From the NCBI GenBank assembly GCA_963710625.1, contig CAVQBG010000024.1, forward strand, positions 52,422 through 116,421: a DNA stretch of 64,000 bases, given 5' to 3'. Made by a program: the position numbers and the translations under genes. Within the stretch, counting starts at the first letter, position 1. Each line of letters starts with the position of its first letter. This stretch comes from Ilumatobacteraceae bacterium (GTDB taxonomy: Bacteria; Actinomycetota; Acidimicrobiia; Acidimicrobiales; Ilumatobacteraceae). Below are positions 6,652 through 46,671 of the stretch, one piece after another. The notes beneath the pieces were generated by a model that saw only the letters and a list, made by a program, of their open reading frames with translations, did not search any database and was not told where the DNA came from.

Positions 6652-7967
6652 CGGCCCCCACTCCCGACGATCGTGCGAATCGTCCGGCCGGCGATCACGA
6701 GGTCGAACCGGAGGCTCTGGTGCCCCAGATAGTAGAAGTCGTACTGCAGCTTCTCCCGTGCGTCGGTCTCGTCACCTGCATAGCCGTACTTGACCTGTGC
6801 CCAACCGGTGAGACCGGGCCGAACCGAGTGACGCAGCTCGTAGAACGGGAGCTTCGTCGTCAACTCCGCGACATAGCGAGGTTGTTCCGGCCGCGGGCCC
6901 ACGATCGAGAGATCACCCTTGAGGACGTTGATCATCTGCGGCAGTTCATCGAGATGGGATCGGCGAAGCAGGTTCCCGAACGGAGTGATGCGGGGATCGC
7001 CGCGAGTGGTCCAATCCGTGGTCGCGCCACCATCGTCGTCCATCGTGCGGAACTTGTAGATCGTGAACTCGCGGTGGTCGCGCCCGACGCGGGCCTGGCG
7101 ATAGAAGACGGGCCCACGATTCGCGACCAGATCACCCAGCGCAACGAACGGCGTCACGACGGCGAGCACCACGACGCCGACCAGACCCGCAGCGACGTCG
7201 AACACCCGCTTGAACCGCCCGTATCTGGCCACGTGGAGCTCTCCGATGTCGAAGAACAGTGACGTCTGCGCCAGGTCCTCGACGGGGACCTTCCCCAACC
7301 ACTCACCGGAGAACGACGGCCGGGTGCGTATGCGAACACCGGTCAGGTGCAGGATGGCTGCCTGATCGATGATTCGTTCGTCGAGCAGCGCATCTGGTTC
7401 GAAGACGACGACGGTCGCCCCGCAACGGTCGGCCGCATCGACCAGCGGCGTGCCCTCGACGGCCGCAACGAGGTCCTCGAGCGCCACCGAACCGACGATC
7501 GATGCCGGTCGCTCGGGTTGGTCGTCGAGCTCGGTTCGCAACGCGGACGCGAGTGACGAGCTGCCGACCACGAGCACCCGATCCCGCGCCTCGAGCCGTG
7601 TCCGGCCGGTCTGCGACAACTTCGAACAGACCATGCACCACGGCACGACGAGCACCGCCGACCCGAAGACGACATATCGCGGAAGCAGCGCCGCGCCGAG
7701 CACCAACTGCGCCAGCGACACACCGACGGCACCGACGGCCGACGCCGAGATCGACGGCACGACGGCCGACTTCACGTCGCGGTAGGAGTCGGGGAGGCCG
7801 AACCCGTACAGCACGATGCTCAGCAGGACCGAGTAACCGATCGCCCATCCGAACCGGGACGTCTCGAAGAACTCGTAGTCCCCCACGTACGTGCCGTGGA
7901 CGACCGACAGCCCGAAGACGATCCCGACGACGCCGGCGTACAGCAGAGCGGTGGCCAGGCGACGCAC
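6648..7967 (-). CDS. Polyprenyl-phosphate glycosylphosphotransferase (WbaP / exopolysaccharide sugar transferase family)
   Basis: N-terminal TM segments. C-terminal FKRVFD...PVFYRQARVGRDHREFTIYKFRTM...DELPQMINVLKGDLSIVGPRP. Confidence 0.85.
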   Translation of the reverse strand: MRRLATALLYAGVVGIVFGLSVVHGTYVGDYEFFETSRFGWAIGYSVLLSIVLYGFGLPDSYRDVKSAVVPSISASAVGAVGVSLAQLVLGAALLPRYVVFGSAVLVVPWCMVCSKLSQTGRTRLEARDRVLVVGSSSLASALRTELDDQPERPASIVGSVALEDLVAAVEGTPLVDAADRCGATVVVFEPDALLDERIIDQAAILHLTGVRIRTRPSFSGEWLGKVPVEDLAQTSLFFDIGELHVARYGRFKRVFDVAAGLVGVVVLAVVTPFVALGDLVANRGPVFYRQARVGRDHREFTIYKFRTMDDDGGATTDWTTRGDPRITPFGNLLRRSHLDELPQMINVLKGDLSIVGPRPEQPRYVAELTTKLPFYELRHSVRPGLTGWAQVKYGYAGDETDAREKLQYDFYYLGHQSLRFDLVIAGRTIRTIVGSGGR

Positions 7968-16557: not shown

Positions 16558-18249
16558 GTGGGTTGGCACGTGGCACACCAGCTGCGGCCGTTCCTGCGAC
16601 GCCCGCGGCTCGACCTGTTGCTCATCGCCGGCGTGTCCGCGGTCGCCGGGCTGTTCGAGGCTGCTGTCCTCATCCTGGTGGTCAACGCTGCGGTCGCGAT
16701 CGCTGATGGCACGTCGGCGTCGCCGATCGACCTCCCGATCATCGACGTCGACGCGTCGATCGGCCAGGTGCTGTGGTGCGCTGCAGGGCTGACGATCGCC
16801 GTCGCGTTGGCGAACACGTTCGTGTCCTGGTTGGCAGCCCGTGTGGGTACGGAGGTGTTGGACACGTCCAGGCACCGCACCATCGAGGCGTTCCTCGGGG
16901 CGTCCTGGAACAGACAGTCCGCAGAGCGCCAGGGCGCAATCCAGGAGACGGCGACGACACTGGCGTTCCAGTCGTCATCGCTCACGATGACCATGATCGC
17001 CGGTTTGTCGGCCGGGCTCGCGCTGGCGGCCCTGTTCCTCGCCGCGGTCTTCATCGACCCGATCGTCACCGTCATCGTGCTGGTGTTCGGCGTCGCACTG
17101 TTCGCCGTCTTCCGGCCGGTCAGCCGACTCACGCGCCGTTACTCGAGCGTGTACGTCGAGGCGAACAGCGGCTACACCGAGGACGTGGCGCGGATGGCTG
17201 CCATGTCGATGGAGCTGCGAGTGTTCGGCGTCGAGTCGCAGATCCTCGCAGCGCTCGACCGCTCGGCCGCCACGGTGAACGAGAGCCTCCGTCGCACTCG
17301 ATTCGTTGCCCGCCTCGGCACGACGTTGTATCGAGACGTCGCAGTGCTGTTCCTCGTCGCTGCGGTGGCGGCGCTGAATCTCGCGGGTGCCGACCGAATC
17401 GTCGAGGTCGGTGCCGTGGCGTTGCTGATCGTGCGCAGCTTGGGTTACGCGACGCTCGTGCAGTCCGCAGCCCAGCAGGTCAGCGAGCTGTCACCCAACC
17501 TCGCAACCCTCCAGAGGCGCCTCGAACGGCTGGAGTCGAGTCGGGAACAGGTCGGTTCGAACGCGGTCTCGTCCTTCGAGAAGATCGAACTCGTCGGCGT
17601 CAGTTACTCCTACGACGACCGGACTCCGGCGATCCGGGATGTCGACCTGTCGATCCGTCGCGGCGAGGTGCTCGGCGTCATCGGACCATCCGGCAGCGGC
17701 AAGTCGACCCTCCTGCAGATCCTGCTGCGGCTTCGGATCCCGGATGCAGGAGCGGTCCTGGTCGACGGCGTCGACTACGAGACGATCGACCCGACGTCGT
17801 GGTCGCATCTCGTGGCGGTCGTGCCCCAGGAACCCCAATTGATCGAGGCGTCGATCTCCGACAACATCGCGTTCCTCCGGCCGAGCGTGACGCGCGACCG
17901 GGCCGAACGAGCAGCCGAAGCCGCGCACGTCGCCGCCGACGTGCGCGAACTGCCCAACGGCTTCGACACGCTGCTCGGGCCACGCGGAACGGGCCTGTCC
18001 GGGGGACAGAAGCAACGTGTTGCGTTCGCTCGGGCGCTGGCTGGCGATCCGCAGCTGTTGATCCTCGACGAGCCGACCAGCGCACTCGACGGCGAGTCCG
18101 AACGCCGCATTCGCGACACGATCACCGAACTCAAAGGCCACGTCACGCTCGTGATCGTGGCACACCGTTTGTCGACGCTCGACGTGTGCGACCGCGTGAT
18201 CTCGATCGAGACCGGCCGGGTCGAGCCCACCGTCCCCCCAGCTGGCTGA
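16558..18249 (+). CDS. ABC exporter, fused permease/ATPase (MsbA-like)
   Basis: Six N-terminal TM helices. GPSGSGKSTLLQ (Walker A), LSGGQKQRVAFARAL (signature), LLILDEPTSALD (Walker B). Confidence 0.9.
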   Translation: MGWHVAHQLRPFLRRPRLDLLLIAGVSAVAGLFEAAVLILVVNAAVAIADGTSASPIDLPIIDVDASIGQVLWCAAGLTIAVALANTFVSWLAARVGTEVLDTSRHRTIEAFLGASWNRQSAERQGAIQETATTLAFQSSSLTMTMIAGLSAGLALAALFLAAVFIDPIVTVIVLVFGVALFAVFRPVSRLTRRYSSVYVEANSGYTEDVARMAAMSMELRVFGVESQILAALDRSAATVNESLRRTRFVARLGTTLYRDVAVLFLVAAVAALNLAGADRIVEVGAVALLIVRSLGYATLVQSAAQQVSELSPNLATLQRRLERLESSREQVGSNAVSSFEKIELVGVSYSYDDRTPAIRDVDLSIRRGEVLGVIGPSGSGKSTLLQILLRLRIPDAGAVLVDGVDYETIDPTSWSHLVAVVPQEPQLIEASISDNIAFLRPSVTRDRAERAAEAAHVAADVRELPNGFDTLLGPRGTGLSGGQKQRVAFARALAGDPQLLILDEPTSALDGESERRIRDTITELKGHVTLVIVAHRLSTLDVCDRVISIETGRVEPTVPPAG

Positions 18250-40817: not shown

Positions 40818-42503
40818 TCAGCGGAGGGCGCCCACCGTGACCGGCTGGGAGGTCACGGAGTCGGCAGCGGACTTCGCGTGATAGCTCGAGCGGGTCAGCG
40901 GGCTCGCCTCGACGTGGCCGACGCCGAACGCCTCGCCGAGCCGCTTCCAGCGCACGAACTCGGTGGGATCGGCGTACCGGTCGATCGGGAGGTGATTCGA
41001 CGTCGGGCGCAGGTACTGGCCGATCGTGACGATGTCGACGCCGACATCCGCGAGATCGGCGAGCAGACCGACGATCTCGTCGTCGGTCTCGCCCAGGCCG
41101 ACCATGAACCCGGTCTTGGTGGTCAACCCCGCCGCCTTCGCCCGGGCGAGCACGCCGAGTGAGCGGGCGTACCCGGCGGACGGGCGCACCGCCCGCTGCA
41201 GCCGGGCGACCGTTTCGACGTTGTGGTTGAGCACGTCCGGTCGCACACGGAACAACACGTCGAGCGCGGCGTCGTCACCCTTGGCGTCGGAGATCAACGT
41301 CTCGACCTGTGTGCGCGGCCGCCGGAGCCTGATCGCCTCGACGCAGTCGGCGACGTGGGCCATTCCACCGTCGGCGAGATCGTCACGGGCGACCATCGTC
41401 AGCACGGCATGGTCGAGGTCCATCCGGTCGATCGCCTCGGCGACGCGGTCGGGTTCGTCGACGGCGGGGGCCAGCGGTCTGCTCGTGTCGACGAGACAGA
41501 ACCCGCATGCACGGGTGCACCGCTCGCCCAGCACCATGAACGTCGCGGTGCCGTCGCTCCAGCACTCCGACAGGTTCGGACAGCCGGCGTCCTCGCAGAC
41601 GGTGACGAGGCCGAGTTCGCGGATCGTCCTGCGCAGCGACGTGACCCCCTCGCCGAGTTCCACCTTGGGCCGCAGCCAGTCGGGCTTGCGCGTCTCGATC
41701 GACAGTCCGTTCGTGACGCCGGCGGCCTCGAGGCGTGCAGCAGCCCGATCCGAGACCAGCTTGACCTGTTCGCCGGGACCCTCGCCGCGGGAGAACGCCG
41801 AGAGGTCGCGGCCGTCGGCGGCATGGCGCCACGCGACGTCCTGACGCTCGATCGCACCGTCAGCCCACCGCTCGGCGGCGAGCCGCGCGACGACGTCGAC
41901 CACCTCGCGCATCGTGACCTCGATGCCCTCCTCGGCGAGCGACGTGACCGGCTTGTCGCCGATTCCACACGGCACGATGTGTTCGCGCAGGTAGTCCATG
42001 TCGGTCGTGACGTTGAGGGCGAAGCCGTGCATCGTTCGACCGTTGGCGAGGCGTACCCCGATCGCGCAGATCTTGCGGGGGCTCACCTCCGGGTCGGGGT
42101 GGCCGACGTCGACCCACACGCCGGCAAAGCCGTCGAGTCGACCGGCGTTCGGAAGCCCGAGTTCGGCGAGGGCGTCGATGATCAGGCCCTCGACGTTGCA
42201 CACGTGCGCCGAGGCGCCGAGGCGGTTGTCGACGTTGACGATCGGGTAGCCGACGAGCTGACCCGGGCCGTGGTAGGTGATGTCACCGCCGCGCTTGACC
42301 GCGACCAGTTCAGCGCCGACAGCGGCCGGTTCGCAGCGCAGGTTGGCGGCCAGATCGGCCCGGGCACCGTGCGTGAAGACGTGCGGGTGTTCGAGCAGCA
42401 ACAGGTGTTGCCCATCGCCGTGCTCGAACAGCGACGTCTGCACCGCGAGCGCCTCGCGGTACGGCACACGCCCCAGCCAGCGGACGCGCAGCGGTTCGAC
42501 CAC
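40818..42503 (-). CDS. lipB-lipA: Octanoyltransferase LipB fused in-frame to lipoyl synthase LipA
   Basis: N-terminus LLLLEHPHVFTHGARAD...KRGGDITYHGPGQLVGYP...KICAIGV. C-terminus RKPDWLRPK...VCEDAGCPNLSECW...CTRACGFCLVDT. No stop codon between the two parts. Confidence 0.85.
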   Translation of the reverse strand: MVEPLRVRWLGRVPYREALAVQTSLFEHGDGQHLLLLEHPHVFTHGARADLAANLRCEPAAVGAELVAVKRGGDITYHGPGQLVGYPIVNVDNRLGASAHVCNVEGLIIDALAELGLPNAGRLDGFAGVWVDVGHPDPEVSPRKICAIGVRLANGRTMHGFALNVTTDMDYLREHIVPCGIGDKPVTSLAEEGIEVTMREVVDVVARLAAERWADGAIERQDVAWRHAADGRDLSAFSRGEGPGEQVKLVSDRAAARLEAAGVTNGLSIETRKPDWLRPKVELGEGVTSLRRTIRELGLVTVCEDAGCPNLSECWSDGTATFMVLGERCTRACGFCLVDTSRPLAPAVDEPDRVAEAIDRMDLDHAVLTMVARDDLADGGMAHVADCVEAIRLRRPRTQVETLISDAKGDDAALDVLFRVRPDVLNHNVETVARLQRAVRPSAGYARSLGVLARAKAAGLTTKTGFMVGLGETDDEIVGLLADLADVGVDIVTIGQYLRPTSNHLPIDRYADPTEFVRWKRLGEAFGVGHVEASPLTRSSYHAKSAADSVTSQPVTVGALR

Positions 42504-42520
42504 GGGACGGGCCGAGCTCG

Positions 42521-43942
42521 TCAGAGCTCGGTGGACCAGTCCTTCGTCTCGAGGATCTCCTTGACCCGCTTCAGGAACCCGGCGGCGTAGGCACCGTCGA
42601 AGGCCCGATGGTCCCAGCTCATCGCCAGGTTGCCGACCGGGTGGATCGCGATCGCCTCGCCGCCATCGGGGCCGCTGGTGACCACCGGCTTGCGCACGAT
42701 GGCATCGGTGGAGATGATGGCCACCTGCGGCTGGTTGATGATCGGCATCGTGAGCACCGAGCCGGCAGAGCCGTTGTTGGTGATCGTGAAGGTGCCGCCC
42801 GAGATCTGGTCGGGGCTGAGCTTGCGCTTGCGGGCCCGGTCGGCGAGATCGGAGATCTCGGTGGCGATCGCCCCGAGCCGTTTCGTCTCGGCGTCACGGA
42901 TGACCGGCGCCAGCAGGCCTTCGTACTCGAGGTCGACGGCGATGCCGAGGTCGATGAAGTTGTGGACGACGAGGTCGTTGCCGCCGACGCTGGCGTTGAG
43001 GTGGGGGAACTCGCGGAGCCCGTCGATCACGGCGCGGGCGATGAACGGCAGGTAGGTGAGGCTGAAGCCATGGCTCGCCTTCCACTCGGACTTGACCGGG
43101 CCACGGACGACGTCGACGTTCGCGAAGTCGACCTCCACGACGCTGAACGCATGGGGGCTCGTGGCCTTGCTCATCACCATGTGATCACCGGTGAGCCGAC
43201 GGATCTTCGACAGCGGGACCACGCTGTCACGCTCACCGGCGCTGACGGGCGCAGCGGCAGCGACCGCCGGTGCAGGAGCTGCAGCTGCCGGTGCGGGTGA
43301 GGCGGGGGCCGGAGCGGCGACGGGCGCCTGAGGAACCGTGGGGGCCGGAGCCGGGGCGGGTGCGGGTGCGGGTGCCGCGGACCCGTCCTGGCGGCCGGCA
43401 CCGGTGACATCGATGTGGTCGAGAACGTCGTCGCGGGTGATTCGACCGCCCGGGCCGGTGCCCGTGATCGCGTCGGGGTCGAGCCCGTGCTCGTTCACGA
43501 GGCGTCGGACCACCGGTGACAGCAGCCGGTTGTCGCCGGCCGCCGCTGTCTCCGGAGCCGCAGGCGCTGGAGCGGGTGGCGGGGGTACGGATGCCGCGGG
43601 CGGCGCTTCCGGGGCGGGCGCCGGAGCTGGAGCGGCGACCGGAGCAGGTTCGGGCGCCGGCGCAGGTTCGGCAGCCGGAGCAGGTTCGGCAGCCGGCGTC
43701 GCGCCGTCGGCATCGCCGACGACGGCGATCACGGTGCCGACATCCACGGTGTCACCCTCCTGCACGCGGATCTCCGTGAGGACTCCCGACACCGGTGACG
43801 GGACCTCGGTGTCGACCTTGTCGGTCGACACCTCGAACAACGGCTCATCGACGGCGACGGTGTCGCCGACGTTCTTGAACCACTGGGTGATCGTGCCTTC
43901 GGTGACCGTTTCACCGAGCTGTGGGAGCGTGACGTCTGCCAT
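42521..43942 (-). CDS. Dihydrolipoamide acyltransferase (E2) of a 2-oxoacid dehydrogenase complex
   Basis: Lipoyl domain LFEVSTDKVDTEVPSP, PSBD LLSPVVRRLVNEHGLDPD, catalytic WDHRAFDG, Ala/Pro linkers. Confidence 0.9.
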   Translation of the reverse strand: MADVTLPQLGETVTEGTITQWFKNVGDTVAVDEPLFEVSTDKVDTEVPSPVSGVLTEIRVQEGDTVDVGTVIAVVGDADGATPAAEPAPAAEPAPAPEPAPVAAPAPAPAPEAPPAASVPPPPAPAPAAPETAAAGDNRLLSPVVRRLVNEHGLDPDAITGTGPGGRITRDDVLDHIDVTGAGRQDGSAAPAPAPAPAPAPTVPQAPVAAPAPASPAPAAAAPAPAVAAAAPVSAGERDSVVPLSKIRRLTGDHMVMSKATSPHAFSVVEVDFANVDVVRGPVKSEWKASHGFSLTYLPFIARAVIDGLREFPHLNASVGGNDLVVHNFIDLGIAVDLEYEGLLAPVIRDAETKRLGAIATEISDLADRARKRKLSPDQISGGTFTITNNGSAGSVLTMPIINQPQVAIISTDAIVRKPVVTSGPDGGEAIAIHPVGNLAMSWDHRAFDGAYAAGFLKRVKEILETKDWSTEL

Positions 43943-43991
43943 GGGTCTGGGTTCCTTCGCGGGTTCGTTCGGATCGGTTGGCTGCTGGTGG

Positions 43992-45395
43992 CTAGCCGTT
44001 GAAGTTGCGGCCGGTGAGTGACATGACGGTCTCCCCGAACAGTTCGGAGAGACTCGGGTGGGGCTGGATGAACTCGGCGATCTCGTCGACCGTCGCCTCC
44101 CAGTTGACGGCCAGGTAGCCGCCGCTGAGCTGCTCGGTCACCCACGGACCCACCATGTGCACGCCGAGCACCTGGCCGGCGGAGCCGTCGGCGTTGCGCT
44201 TTGCGATGATCTTCACGAGGCCCTCGGTCTCGCCCACGATCTGCGCACGACTGTTGAACTTGAACGGGTGCTTGGCGACGACGACGTCGTGCCCGGCAGC
44301 CCTGGCCTGCTCCTCGTCGGGGCCGGCCCACGCAACCTCTGGGTGGCAGTAGATCGCCCACGGCACCCGGTCGTACATCACGGGCATCGGTGATTCGCCG
44401 AGCAGGTGCTTGATGACGAGGATCGCTTCGGCGTAGGCGACGTGAGCGAGCTGCGGGGTCGCGATCAGATCGCCGACTGCGTACACACCGGGCTCGCCGG
44501 TGCGGCAGTACTCGTCGACGACGACGAACCCGCGCTCGTCGACGACCACGCCGGTGCCCTGGAGTCCGAGCTGGTCGGCGAACGGACGGCGCCCGACCGA
44601 CACCACGACGGCGTCGACCTCGACGGACTCGTCGTCACCGAACGACACGGTCGTTCCGCCGGAACCGTTCGGTGTGTGGCCCTTCACCATCACGCCGGTG
44701 CGAATCGAGATCTTCTTCTTCTTGAACGACTTCTCCACGACCTTGGCGAGGTCGGCATCCAGGCCGGGAAGGATCTTCGGGAGGCCCTCCAGGATCGTCA
44801 CCTCGGACCCGAGGTCGGCGAACGTCGACGCGAACTCGCACCCGATCGCACCGCCACCGATCACGACGACCCGTGCAGGGACGTGGTCGAGGTCGAGGAC
44901 CTCGTCGCTGGTCATGATCGGCCCGCCCCGCTCGAAGCCGGGGATCAGGCGCGGGACCGAGCCGGCGGCCAGCATCACCGAATCGCCCGTGACGACGGCG
45001 GTCGACCCGTCGGCCATCACCACGCTCACGGAACGACCGGCGCCGAGTTGGCCGACACCGTTGAACACCTCGACCTTGCGGCCCTTGCACATCGCTCCGA
45101 TGCCCTTCACCAGGCCGTCGACGATGCCCTGCTTGCGCTGCTGCGTGCGGGCGAAGTTGACCGAAGCCGGAGCACCGGCGTCGATGCCGAAGTCGGCGGC
45201 GTGATCGACGTGACGCTTCACGGCGGCGGTCTCGAGGAACGCCTTCGCCGGGATGCAGCCACGGTTGAGGCAGGTCCCGCCGAGCGCATCCTTCTCCACG
45301 AGGGCGACGCGCAAGCCGGCCGACGCGCCGTACAGCGCCGCCGAATAGCCGCCCGGGCCCCCACCAATCACCACCAGATCGAATTGGTCACTCAC
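43992..45395 (-). CDS. lpd: Dihydrolipoyl dehydrogenase (E3)
   Basis: FDLVVIGGGPGGYSAA...GGTCLNRGCIPAK. GTG start chosen at 45395. Confidence 0.9.
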   Translation of the reverse strand: MSDQFDLVVIGGGPGGYSAALYGASAGLRVALVEKDALGGTCLNRGCIPAKAFLETAAVKRHVDHAADFGIDAGAPASVNFARTQQRKQGIVDGLVKGIGAMCKGRKVEVFNGVGQLGAGRSVSVVMADGSTAVVTGDSVMLAAGSVPRLIPGFERGGPIMTSDEVLDLDHVPARVVVIGGGAIGCEFASTFADLGSEVTILEGLPKILPGLDADLAKVVEKSFKKKKISIRTGVMVKGHTPNGSGGTTVSFGDDESVEVDAVVVSVGRRPFADQLGLQGTGVVVDERGFVVVDEYCRTGEPGVYAVGDLIATPQLAHVAYAEAILVIKHLLGESPMPVMYDRVPWAIYCHPEVAWAGPDEEQARAAGHDVVVAKHPFKFNSRAQIVGETEGLVKIIAKRNADGSAGQVLGVHMVGPWVTEQLSGGYLAVNWEATVDEIAEFIQPHPSLSELFGETVMSLTGRNFNG

Positions 45396-45495: not shown

Positions 45496-45921
45496 TCACG
45501 GCTCCGACAGCACCCAGTTGCGCTGCTCGTCGCCCCGGCGCAGGATCAGCACGCGGCTCGATCCCTCGGCCCCACTGACGTCGAAATCGAGCCGGCATCG
45601 CTGCGGCGCCTCGGTGATCTCGGTGCACCGACCGTCCGCCGGGGCGCCGAGCGGGTCGAGCCGGCGGTCGCCGGTGACCAACACGAAGCTGTCGACCGAG
45701 TCGTCGACGCCGCCCACCTCGACGTCGACCCCGAGGAGCGTCGCGGTCTCGCTGACTCCCACGACCGTCACGCCGACGTCGCCCACCGACACCGCCTCAC
45801 CGACGACCGCCGGCTCGACCGAGGCGGTCTCGTTGGAGAGTTGGAACAGGAAGACACCACCCGCGAGCAGGATGGCGAGGCCCACGCCAACCGAGAGCAG
45901 CAGCAGCGTGCGGGTCTTCAT
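45496..45921 (-). CDS. Small membrane-anchored hypothetical protein
   Basis: N-terminal TM LLLLSVGVGLAILLAGGVFLF, coding-like composition. Confidence 0.55.
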   Translation of the reverse strand: MKTRTLLLLSVGVGLAILLAGGVFLFQLSNETASVEPAVVGEAVSVGDVGVTVVGVSETATLLGVDVEVGGVDDSVDSFVLVTGDRRLDPLGAPADGRCTEITEAPQRCRLDFDVSGAEGSSRVLILRRGDEQRNWVLSEP

Positions 45922-46005
45922 CGGCGTTGCAGCCTAGGAGAACGTTTCGGAAACGTCCTCGGGCACGACGTGCCCGATCGTCACCGATTCGGTACCTTCG
46001 GGTCG

Positions 46006-46671
46006 GTGACTCCCCCCACGACGACCCGCAGACGCCGCCACCTGACCGTCGGCGCGGTCGCACTCGCGCTGGTGGTCTCGGCGTGCTCGTCCACCGACGA
46101 CAGCACCGGCGCCGATGTCACCGCCGTCCCCGAGGCCCCGACCGCCACCGAGCCGACCGACGCTCCTGCGGAGACGCCCGATCCCTCCGTCGCCGAGCCG
46201 ACCGAGGAAACCGCGACCCAGCAGAGCACGGCCGCCACCGGCACCGAGGCCACCGAACCCGACGTGGTCGTCCCCGAAGCCCTCCGGTTCACCGCACCGC
46301 TGGTCGGTGGCGGCGAGTTCGACGGTGCGGCGTACGCCGGCAAACCGACGGTGTTCTGGTTCTGGGCGCCCACTTGAAGCGTGTGCAACCGTGAAGCCCC
46401 CTCGGTCGAGGAGGCAGCAGTGAAGTTCCAGGATTCCGCCAACTTCGTCGGTGTGGCATGGACCGGCAGCGACGACTCGTTCCAGGGGTTCATCGACAAG
46501 CACGGGCTCACGTTCCCGCAGATCAGCGACGACCCCGGCGACGTGTTCGACCGGTTCGGCGTCTCGTACCAGCCCGCGCTCATCGTGGTGAAGACCGACG
46601 GCTCGACCGAACTGGTCGCAGGAGCCGTCGACGGCGATCTGCTCGACCAGATCATCTCCGAAGCCGCGTGA
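46006..46671 (+). CDS. TlpA/ResA-like thiol:disulfide oxidoreductase lipoprotein with in-frame TGA (46375-46377) at the first Cys of CxxC; candidate selenoprotein
   Basis: Reading through joins ...GKPTVFWFWAPT-[TGA]-SVCNREAPSVEE..., which aligns with the canonical FWAsWCxxCxxEaP. Lipobox LVVSAC after an RRRR n-region. GC hairpin at 46396-46415. Confidence 0.55.
46396..46415 (+). other. Candidate bacterial SECIS hairpin
   Basis: GCCCCCUC-GGUC-GAGGAGGC: about 8 bp with one bulge. The apical loop contains G and U, about 29 nt downstream of the UGA. Confidence 0.4.

Follow-up and report, generated by a model that had tools for sequence, protein, structure and literature searches.

A conserved in-frame UGA and a covarying downstream hairpin in a probable selenocysteine-containing DsbE/DsbF-type lipoprotein gene of Ilumatobacteraceae

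The closest solved structures to the protein described here, by sequence as well as by fold, are those of Mycobacterium tuberculosis DsbE (MPT53, Rv2878c, 1LU4) and DsbF (Rv1677, 3IOS). With both it shares an extracytoplasmic actinobacterial thioredoxin fold, the motif WFW(A/T)P-x-C-x-x-C-N/Q-x-EAP and a QP cis-Pro loop. Bacillus subtilis ResA, Bradyrhizobium TlpA and CcmG (DsbE) belong to the same fold class of membrane-tethered extracytoplasmic CxxC proteins and are reductases of cytochrome c maturation. Among selenoproteins, the Rcas_1661 family (NF041057) is a precedent for a thioredoxin-like lipoprotein with selenocysteine (Sec), and the SECIS element of Escherichia coli fdhF is a stem-loop located just downstream of the UGA, within the coding sequence. 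A computationally predicted selenoprotein family named 'Prx-like thiol:disulfide oxidoreductase', with domain PF00578, a UxxC or UxxU motif and WP_010940744.1 as its representative, is catalogued in PMC9312934 (Table 1) and PMC13188914 and attributed there to Kryukov & Gladyshev 2004. UxxC oxidoreductases of AhpC/TSA type are a catalogued selenoprotein family, and the preliminary description of our locus had named UxxC thiol:disulfide oxidoreductases as a known selenoprotein class.

We analysed a stretch of 64,000 nucleotides of Ilumatobacteraceae DNA (the window), in which a TGA codon interrupts a TlpA-like reading frame. We consider it very likely that positions 46006-46671 form one gene, and that it encodes a membrane-anchored extracytoplasmic thioredoxin-fold thiol:disulfide oxidoreductase of the kind represented by actinobacterial DsbE/DsbF (MPT53), in which Sec replaces the nucleophilic N-terminal Cys.

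Gene layout and fold

The TGA codon had been described as lying in frame between a first ORF with a signal peptide, a lipobox and a Thr/Glu/Pro-rich linker, and a second ORF. We confirmed this layout, and the features of the first half could be read directly from the sequence (Table 1). Translation probably starts at GTG 46006, with an in-frame GTG at 45970 as the alternative; the upstream frame is open, and MTPPTTTRRRRHLTVGAVALALVVSAC is encoded from GTG 46006. Around the TGA the read-through product is GKPTVFWFWAPT-TGA-SVCNREAPSVEE: the linker is followed by VVVPEALRFTAPLVGGGEFDGAAYAGKPTVFWFWAPT, the TGA, SVCNREAPSVEE and the remaining frame up to the stop codon. The redox site of the window gene hence reads FWFWAPT-U-SVC-NREAP. 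Downstream of the TGA, an ORF of 96 aa in the same frame (46381-46671) starts with GTG.

Table 1. Coordinates of the selenoprotein gene and its parts in the window
Feature	Position	Strand	Remarks
Complete selenoprotein gene	46006-46671	+	221 codons including UGA-Sec; stop codon TGA 46669-46671
Lipoprotein signal peptide	46006-46086	+	Arg-rich n-region, hydrophobic core, lipobox V-S-A-C; read from sequence
Codon of lipidated Cys27	46084-46086	+	lipobox VSAC; sequence pattern
Low-complexity linker rich in Thr/Glu/Pro/Ala/Asp, 59 residues	46087-46263	+	length varies among species
Thioredoxin-fold (TlpA/ResA/DsbE-like) domain, spans the TGA	46264-46668	+	Pfam, PDB sequence matches, model
UGA read as Sec, residue 124, N-terminal redox residue of U-S-V-C	46375-46377	+	
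Resolving Cys (TGC) of UxxC, Cys127	46384-46386	+	invariant, 81/81 sequences
SECIS-type hairpin	46396-46415	+	conservation and covariation across 73 distinct sequences
Probable cis-Pro, Pro190 in YQPAL	46573-46575	+	Q and P invariant in orthologues; aligns with WQPAF of MPT53; cis conformation presumed from thioredoxin-family knowledge

The same architecture was found in 82 loci, 77 of which carry an in-frame lipoprotein signal and lipobox, judged by sequence pattern. Among the five without an in-frame signal, one is cut by the contig end and four contain frame breaks within the low-complexity linker. In these four (L017, L029, L035 and L038, three of them Microflora Danica (MFD) MAGs) the frame is broken inside the linker upstream of the TGA, which puts the signal out of frame; the breaks may be assembly indels. 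Linker frame breaks of this kind in some long-read MAG loci could also be taken to mean that the TGA itself is a false stop made by a sequencing or assembly error. Such an error is barely conceivable, as independent assemblies produced by many projects, and the finished Ilumatobacter coccineus genome as well, show the identical TGA.

The RR present in most n-regions raised the possibility of a Tat signal; no TAT model was matched in the NCBIfam search of the protein. A promoter and terminator scan around the gene returned no candidates. When we searched the whole window for other TGA-split ORFs, only ordinary adjacent genes were found.

With U written as C, residues 91-199 matched Pfam AhpC-TSA (PF00578) at 59.9 bits (cut-off 26; E 3e-16), and Redoxin was matched as well. 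This match spans the TGA. Sequence searches of the PDB returned MPT53 (1lu4, E 1.6e-26) and DsbF (3ios, E 2e-24). In these alignments WFWxPWCxxC of MPT53 and DsbF is placed opposite WFWAPT-U-SVC, and the TGA falls on the first Cys of WCPFC (MPT53) and of WCPTC (DsbF). It thereby occupies the place of the N-terminal redox Cys in a CxxC motif of TlpA/ResA/DsbE type, as had been proposed from the TlpA/ResA motif. MPT53 and DsbF differ from the window protein in having Cys instead of Sec, W instead of T before the first redox residue, and no SECIS.

The fold was also examined in the AlphaFold model of P0001, a 72%-identical Cys orthologue. Its domain is modelled with pLDDT above 90, the linker with about 50-60, and the CxxC motif is located after strand 119-124, at the start of the first helix. 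Foldseek comparison of this model gave target-normalised TM-scores of 0.92 for DsbF, 0.87 for MPT53/DsbE and about 0.87 for ResA. NCBIfam models of the named subfamilies stayed below their cut-offs (ResA, 50 against 170 bits; StoA, 33.6 against 210; DsbE, 20.1 against 123; TlpA, 15.9 against 230). The Rcas_1661 thioredoxin-like (seleno)lipoprotein model NF041057 scored 19.4 bits against 190, and the protein is not a member of that family.

Conservation of the TGA codon and selection on both sides of it

To keep the search independent of the TGA codon itself, we scanned one genome per species with a query consisting only of the part downstream of the TGA. In total, 80 loci were found, and nearly every one comes from Ilumatobacteraceae or another group of Acidimicrobiia. 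The homologous codon is TGA in each of the 80, and likewise in I. coccineus, an ENA contig and the window. In all 80 loci the residues before the TGA are (F/L/M)WFW(A/S)P(T/F/G), and U-x-x-C is found in all orthologues, with U-S-V-C in the window. Pairwise amino-acid identity among the TGA orthologues goes down to 49%; the closest locus, from MAG MFD09779.bin.2.137, is 96% identical. In the finished I. coccineus genome both the gene order and the TGA are the same as in the window. Comparison of orthologues had been put forward as one of the checks, and it showed that the TGA is kept, the frames are intact and the hairpin is conserved.

Two of the loci deserve separate mention. In L071 a frameshift affects the Sec gene six codons past the TGA (NREAPRSRRQ..., around 7306-7345); this could be a decaying copy beside a Cys paralogue or an assembly indel. 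L045 (CAVYIO010000007.1), labelled as Rhodothermales, has a typical Ilumatobacteraceae locus with 76% identity and is probably mis-binned.

Both sides of the TGA are under purifying selection. For the 30 codons that precede the TGA the dN/dS ratio was 0.33, and for codons +15 to +95 it was 0.31; these similar values indicate that both halves are selected in one frame. Viewed as a single sequence, the locus is most simply read as a pseudogene, in which a TGC-to-TGA nonsense mutation inactivated a TlpA-like gene, and no sel genes were seen in the window. This reading is made highly improbable by the retention of the TGA in more than 80 species with identities down to 49%, by dN/dS of about 0.3 on both sides and by the intact frames and co-conserved hairpin. 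The initial preference for a selenoprotein over a pseudogene therefore holds with TGA, frames and hairpin conserved across these species.

When proteins were searched with the read-through domain, dozens of clusters of 83-98 aa were retrieved, each of them beginning immediately downstream of where the TGA lies. Their sources are genomes of Ilumatobacter and Ilumatobacteraceae, among them the finished genome of I. coccineus. The same search also returned full-length Cys-containing homologues with 55-72% identity. The short proteins, called as 'redoxin/TlpA family' in many genomes, would fit a model of two products, in which the TGA ends translation of the first half and the second ORF (96 or 83 aa in NCBI/JGI annotation) yields a protein of its own; in the window, a GTG is indeed present 3 nt after the TGA. 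Against this model, ATG, GTG and TTG are all absent ahead of the resolving Cys in 71 of 81 orthologues, which shows that the downstream half is not an independent gene, and the first possible downstream starts are scattered over codons +15 to +71. Moreover, the downstream piece has no export signal, lacks strands beta1-3 and the nucleophile, and the fold spans the TGA. We regard independent translation as very unlikely, and the earlier statement that neither half is viable alone is borne out by the missing start codons and by the fold.

Among the homologues, TGC was found at the codon corresponding to the TGA in P0001, P0003, P0005, P0011 and others. P0001 is located at the same position before an epimerase/DUF1731 gene. 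Homologues carry Cys at the TGA position and never Trp. In P0002 and P0007, which are JGI metagenome calls, the same TGA gene was translated with Trp (FWFWAPTWSSC); a translation of the code-4/25 type hides the selenoprotein in these two records.

These two calls are what speaks for a read-through without Sec, by near-cognate insertion of Trp or Cys at the UGA or by local reassignment. TGA is, however, the main stop codon in the genome: in the window it ends about 29 of 32 high-GC3 ORFs as an ordinary stop codon, so that there is no sign of codon reassignment. The consistent Cys in homologues, the SECIS-like hairpin with an fdhF-type loop under selection (see below) and the record of SelA, SelB and SelD for the genus in the tables of PMC5029168 likewise argue against it, and we consider a read-through without Sec unlikely to a high degree. 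By contrast, reading TGA 46375-46377 as selenocysteine is strongly supported by the sequence comparisons.

Four genomes have a Cys paralogue (WFWAPW-C-SVC-NREAPTV) in tandem with the Sec gene (WFWAPF-U-STC), at a distance of about 750 nt on its upstream side. The Cys codons of these paralogues are at 1707 in L059, 1646 in L060, 9245 in L063 and 6568 in L071. The Cys paralogues of L059, L060 and L071 have another hairpin, CCGAC-CGUCGA-GUCGG, of about -13 kcal/mol at +24 to +44 after the Cys codon; its presence at the SECIS-equivalent position may be chance or a relic.

A hairpin with covarying pairs downstream of the TGA

Downstream of the TGA, the transcript can form the hairpin GCCCCCUC-GGUC-GAGGAGGC. 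Its 5′ arm covers 46396-46403, the GGUC loop 46404-46407 and the 3′ arm 46408-46415. From the U of the UGA to the first loop base the distance is 29 nt, so that GGUC occupies +30 to +33. The position, loop and spacing given in the preliminary description were correct, but its stem of eight clean pairs was not: three pairs (46396-46398 with 46413-46415) and four pairs (46400-46403 with 46408-46411) are separated by a 1x1 internal loop, the C.A mismatch 46399/46412.

The folding energy of the 57-nt segment was -13.4 kcal/mol, compared to -13.5 +/- 2.5 for shuffled sequences (z = 0.04). As the hairpin alone is no better than chance, its significance comes from the comparison of species and not from folding energy. 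We aligned 73 distinct 57-nt sequences whose first codon is the TGA (alignment A2). All of them have GGUC in the loop, and of the 511 cells for the seven pairs, 510 hold a canonical pair. Compensatory changes were seen at two pairs: pair 24-39 is CG in 64 sequences, UA in 3, AU in 2, GC in 2 and UG in 1, and pair 27-36 is CG in 67, UA in 4 and UG in 2. At one further pair both GC and GU occur. None of 500 shuffles attained the covariation score, and pairing was 83% for the tested structure compared to 39-65% for slid controls. An extension of the lower stem (A2 columns 18-19 with 44-45) was also tried and rejected, the two positions being unpaired in 43 and 14 of the 73 sequences.

In addition, synonymous sites in this region are frozen. 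Ser is encoded by TCG in 81/81 sequences, Val by GTC in 81/81, Glu by GAA in 80/81 and Thr at codon -1 by ACT in 74/74. GAA and ACT are unusual codons here, as the genome has a GC3 of about 88%, and four-fold sites elsewhere in the gene vary freely. This freezing far exceeds what the peptide requires. In line with this, dS was 0.47 in codons +1 to +14 compared to 0.81 downstream. Nucleotide identity was 0.927 in the SECIS region and 0.745 in the remaining gene, a difference of which a part reflects the protein, since the hairpin largely overlaps the conserved peptide EAPSVEE.

The immediate context of the UGA (46372-46378 and orthologues) is rigid as well: ACT precedes the TGA in all 74 Thr cases, and the base that follows it is A in 72 of 81 sequences.

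In every Cys form examined the hairpin is broken and ordinary GC-rich codons are found in its place. In the closest Cys form, a CCC-to-GAA change breaks the stem, of which remnants persist.

The SECIS of E. coli fdhF, read from MG1655, has an identical GGUC apical loop. The two elements differ in spacing, with the loop starting at +22 in fdhF and at +30 here, and in the sequence of the stem, which has a C.A internal mismatch here and a bulged U in fdhF. No Rfam match was obtained in the window at the gathering threshold or around the site at E <= 10; this is expected, because bacterial SECIS elements are poorly modelled in Rfam. Judged by its conservation and covariation across the 73 distinct sequences, the hairpin behaves like a conserved bacterial SECIS element, the role first proposed for it.

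Taken together with the fold, this suggests the following mechanism. The hairpin, 21-41 nt downstream of the UGA, would recruit SelB.GTP.Sec-tRNA(Sec), and UGA 46375-46377 would be decoded as Sec instead of as a stop. We infer this insertion of Sec as well as the export route, in which the protein would leave the cytoplasm, receive its lipid at Cys27 and stay tethered through the flexible linker. Sec124 could then attack substrate disulfides or sulfenates, giving a selenenylsulfide that would be resolved by Cys127. In its redox role the protein may act as an oxidase, like M. tuberculosis DsbE and DsbF, or as a reductase, like ResA.

Selenocysteine machinery, family placement and gene neighbourhood

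We looked for the Sec machinery in the window and also in 82 related loci, about 1.3 Mb of sequence. With E. coli SelA, SelB and SelD as tblastn queries, selA, selB and selD were not found in these sequences, and neither ARAGORN nor the tRNA scan of the window detected a tRNA-Sec there. For this reason, the machinery is documented for the genus only, from literature. Table S1 of Peng et al. 2016 (PMC5029168) lists both I. coccineus and I. nonamiensis as SelD+, SelA+, SelB+, YbbB-, YqeB- and YqeC-. According to Table S2 of the same study, I. coccineus has 15 selenoproteins and I. nonamiensis 10, and the Actinobacteria listed next to them in that table have one or two. In addition, selA/B/C/D were reported in all genomes of Actinomarina, a member of the same class (2026 preprint, bioRxiv 10.64898/2026.04.03.716425). 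The preliminary description had called Sec use in such a high-GC actinobacterium notable. As these two Ilumatobacter species are already listed with selenoproteins in PMC5029168, this was overstated, and Sec use here is not especially notable.

A search against plasmids with E. coli SelD led to a selD-selA-selB operon in Miltoncostaea oceani. In a protein search with the Miltoncostaea SelA, the best 120 matches all had at least 60% identity, and none of these was named Ilumatobacter. Unrelated high-GC actinobacterial contigs (L091 and L092, 76% GC) carry selA-selB operons; in L092, a tRNA-Sec is located at 16743-16837 on the minus strand, 5 kb from selA-selB. In L093-L102, the order of genes is moaD-moaE-selA-(TPR)-selB.

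Both the protein family and the use of Sec in the Ilumatobacteraceae lineage are already known. By the catalogue definition, PF00578 together with UxxC, the gene fits the 'Prx-like thiol:disulfide oxidoreductase' family. Like the members of this family, it has PF00578 as its best domain and Sec in place of the N-terminal redox Cys, and Sec and Cys homologues coexist. What sets the window protein apart from the family is its long linker and its lipoprotein nature; in structure it is closest to actinobacterial DsbE and DsbF. Two other catalogue entries, 'Thiol-disulfide isomerase-like (PF13905, UxxC)' and 'Redoxin family protein (UxxC)', might be just as suitable. That the gene represents a distinct, uncatalogued subfamily, a Sec form of the DsbE/DsbF (MPT53-type) lipoprotein fixed across nearly the whole Ilumatobacteraceae and related Acidimicrobiia, is a tentative suggestion that we think is rather doubtful. 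If it were true, a lineage abundant in soils and the sea would need selenium for its envelope thiol-disulfide chemistry, and the unusually rigid UGA context (ACU-UGA-A, with an fdhF-like GGUC SECIS 8 nt further downstream) would merit study.

Our finding leaves the knowledge of Sec decoding and of selenoprotein families unchanged. With it, a lineage already known for its wealth of selenoproteins gains a well-supported exported one of DsbE/DsbF type, and a systematic mis-annotation comes to light. The NCBI and JGI records of more than 80 Ilumatobacteraceae species carry the 83-98-aa fragment or a Trp-containing mistranslation, where the correct product would be a lipoprotein of about 185-245 aa with Sec at the active site. 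The pairs of Sec and Cys orthologues, the tandem Sec/Cys paralogues and the covarying SECIS also form a clean set for comparative work.

The genes in the neighbourhood encode a lipB-lipA fusion, 2-oxoacid dehydrogenase E2 and E3, a 141-aa membrane protein and the epimerase/DUF1731 protein, and they give no functional clue. Unlike for the reductases ResA, TlpA and CcmG, there is no ccdA, resB or resC near the window gene. On the minus strand, 40818-45395 contains the fused lipB-lipA (LplA-B_cat and Radical_SAM, 561 aa), followed by 2-oxoacid dehydrogenase E2 and E3. The conserved 141-aa protein, with an N-terminal membrane anchor, two Cys and no Pfam match, is encoded at 45496-45921, also on the minus strand and divergent from the selenoprotein gene. 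A role as partner or substrate is conceivable for this protein, and the same arrangement is found in I. coccineus.
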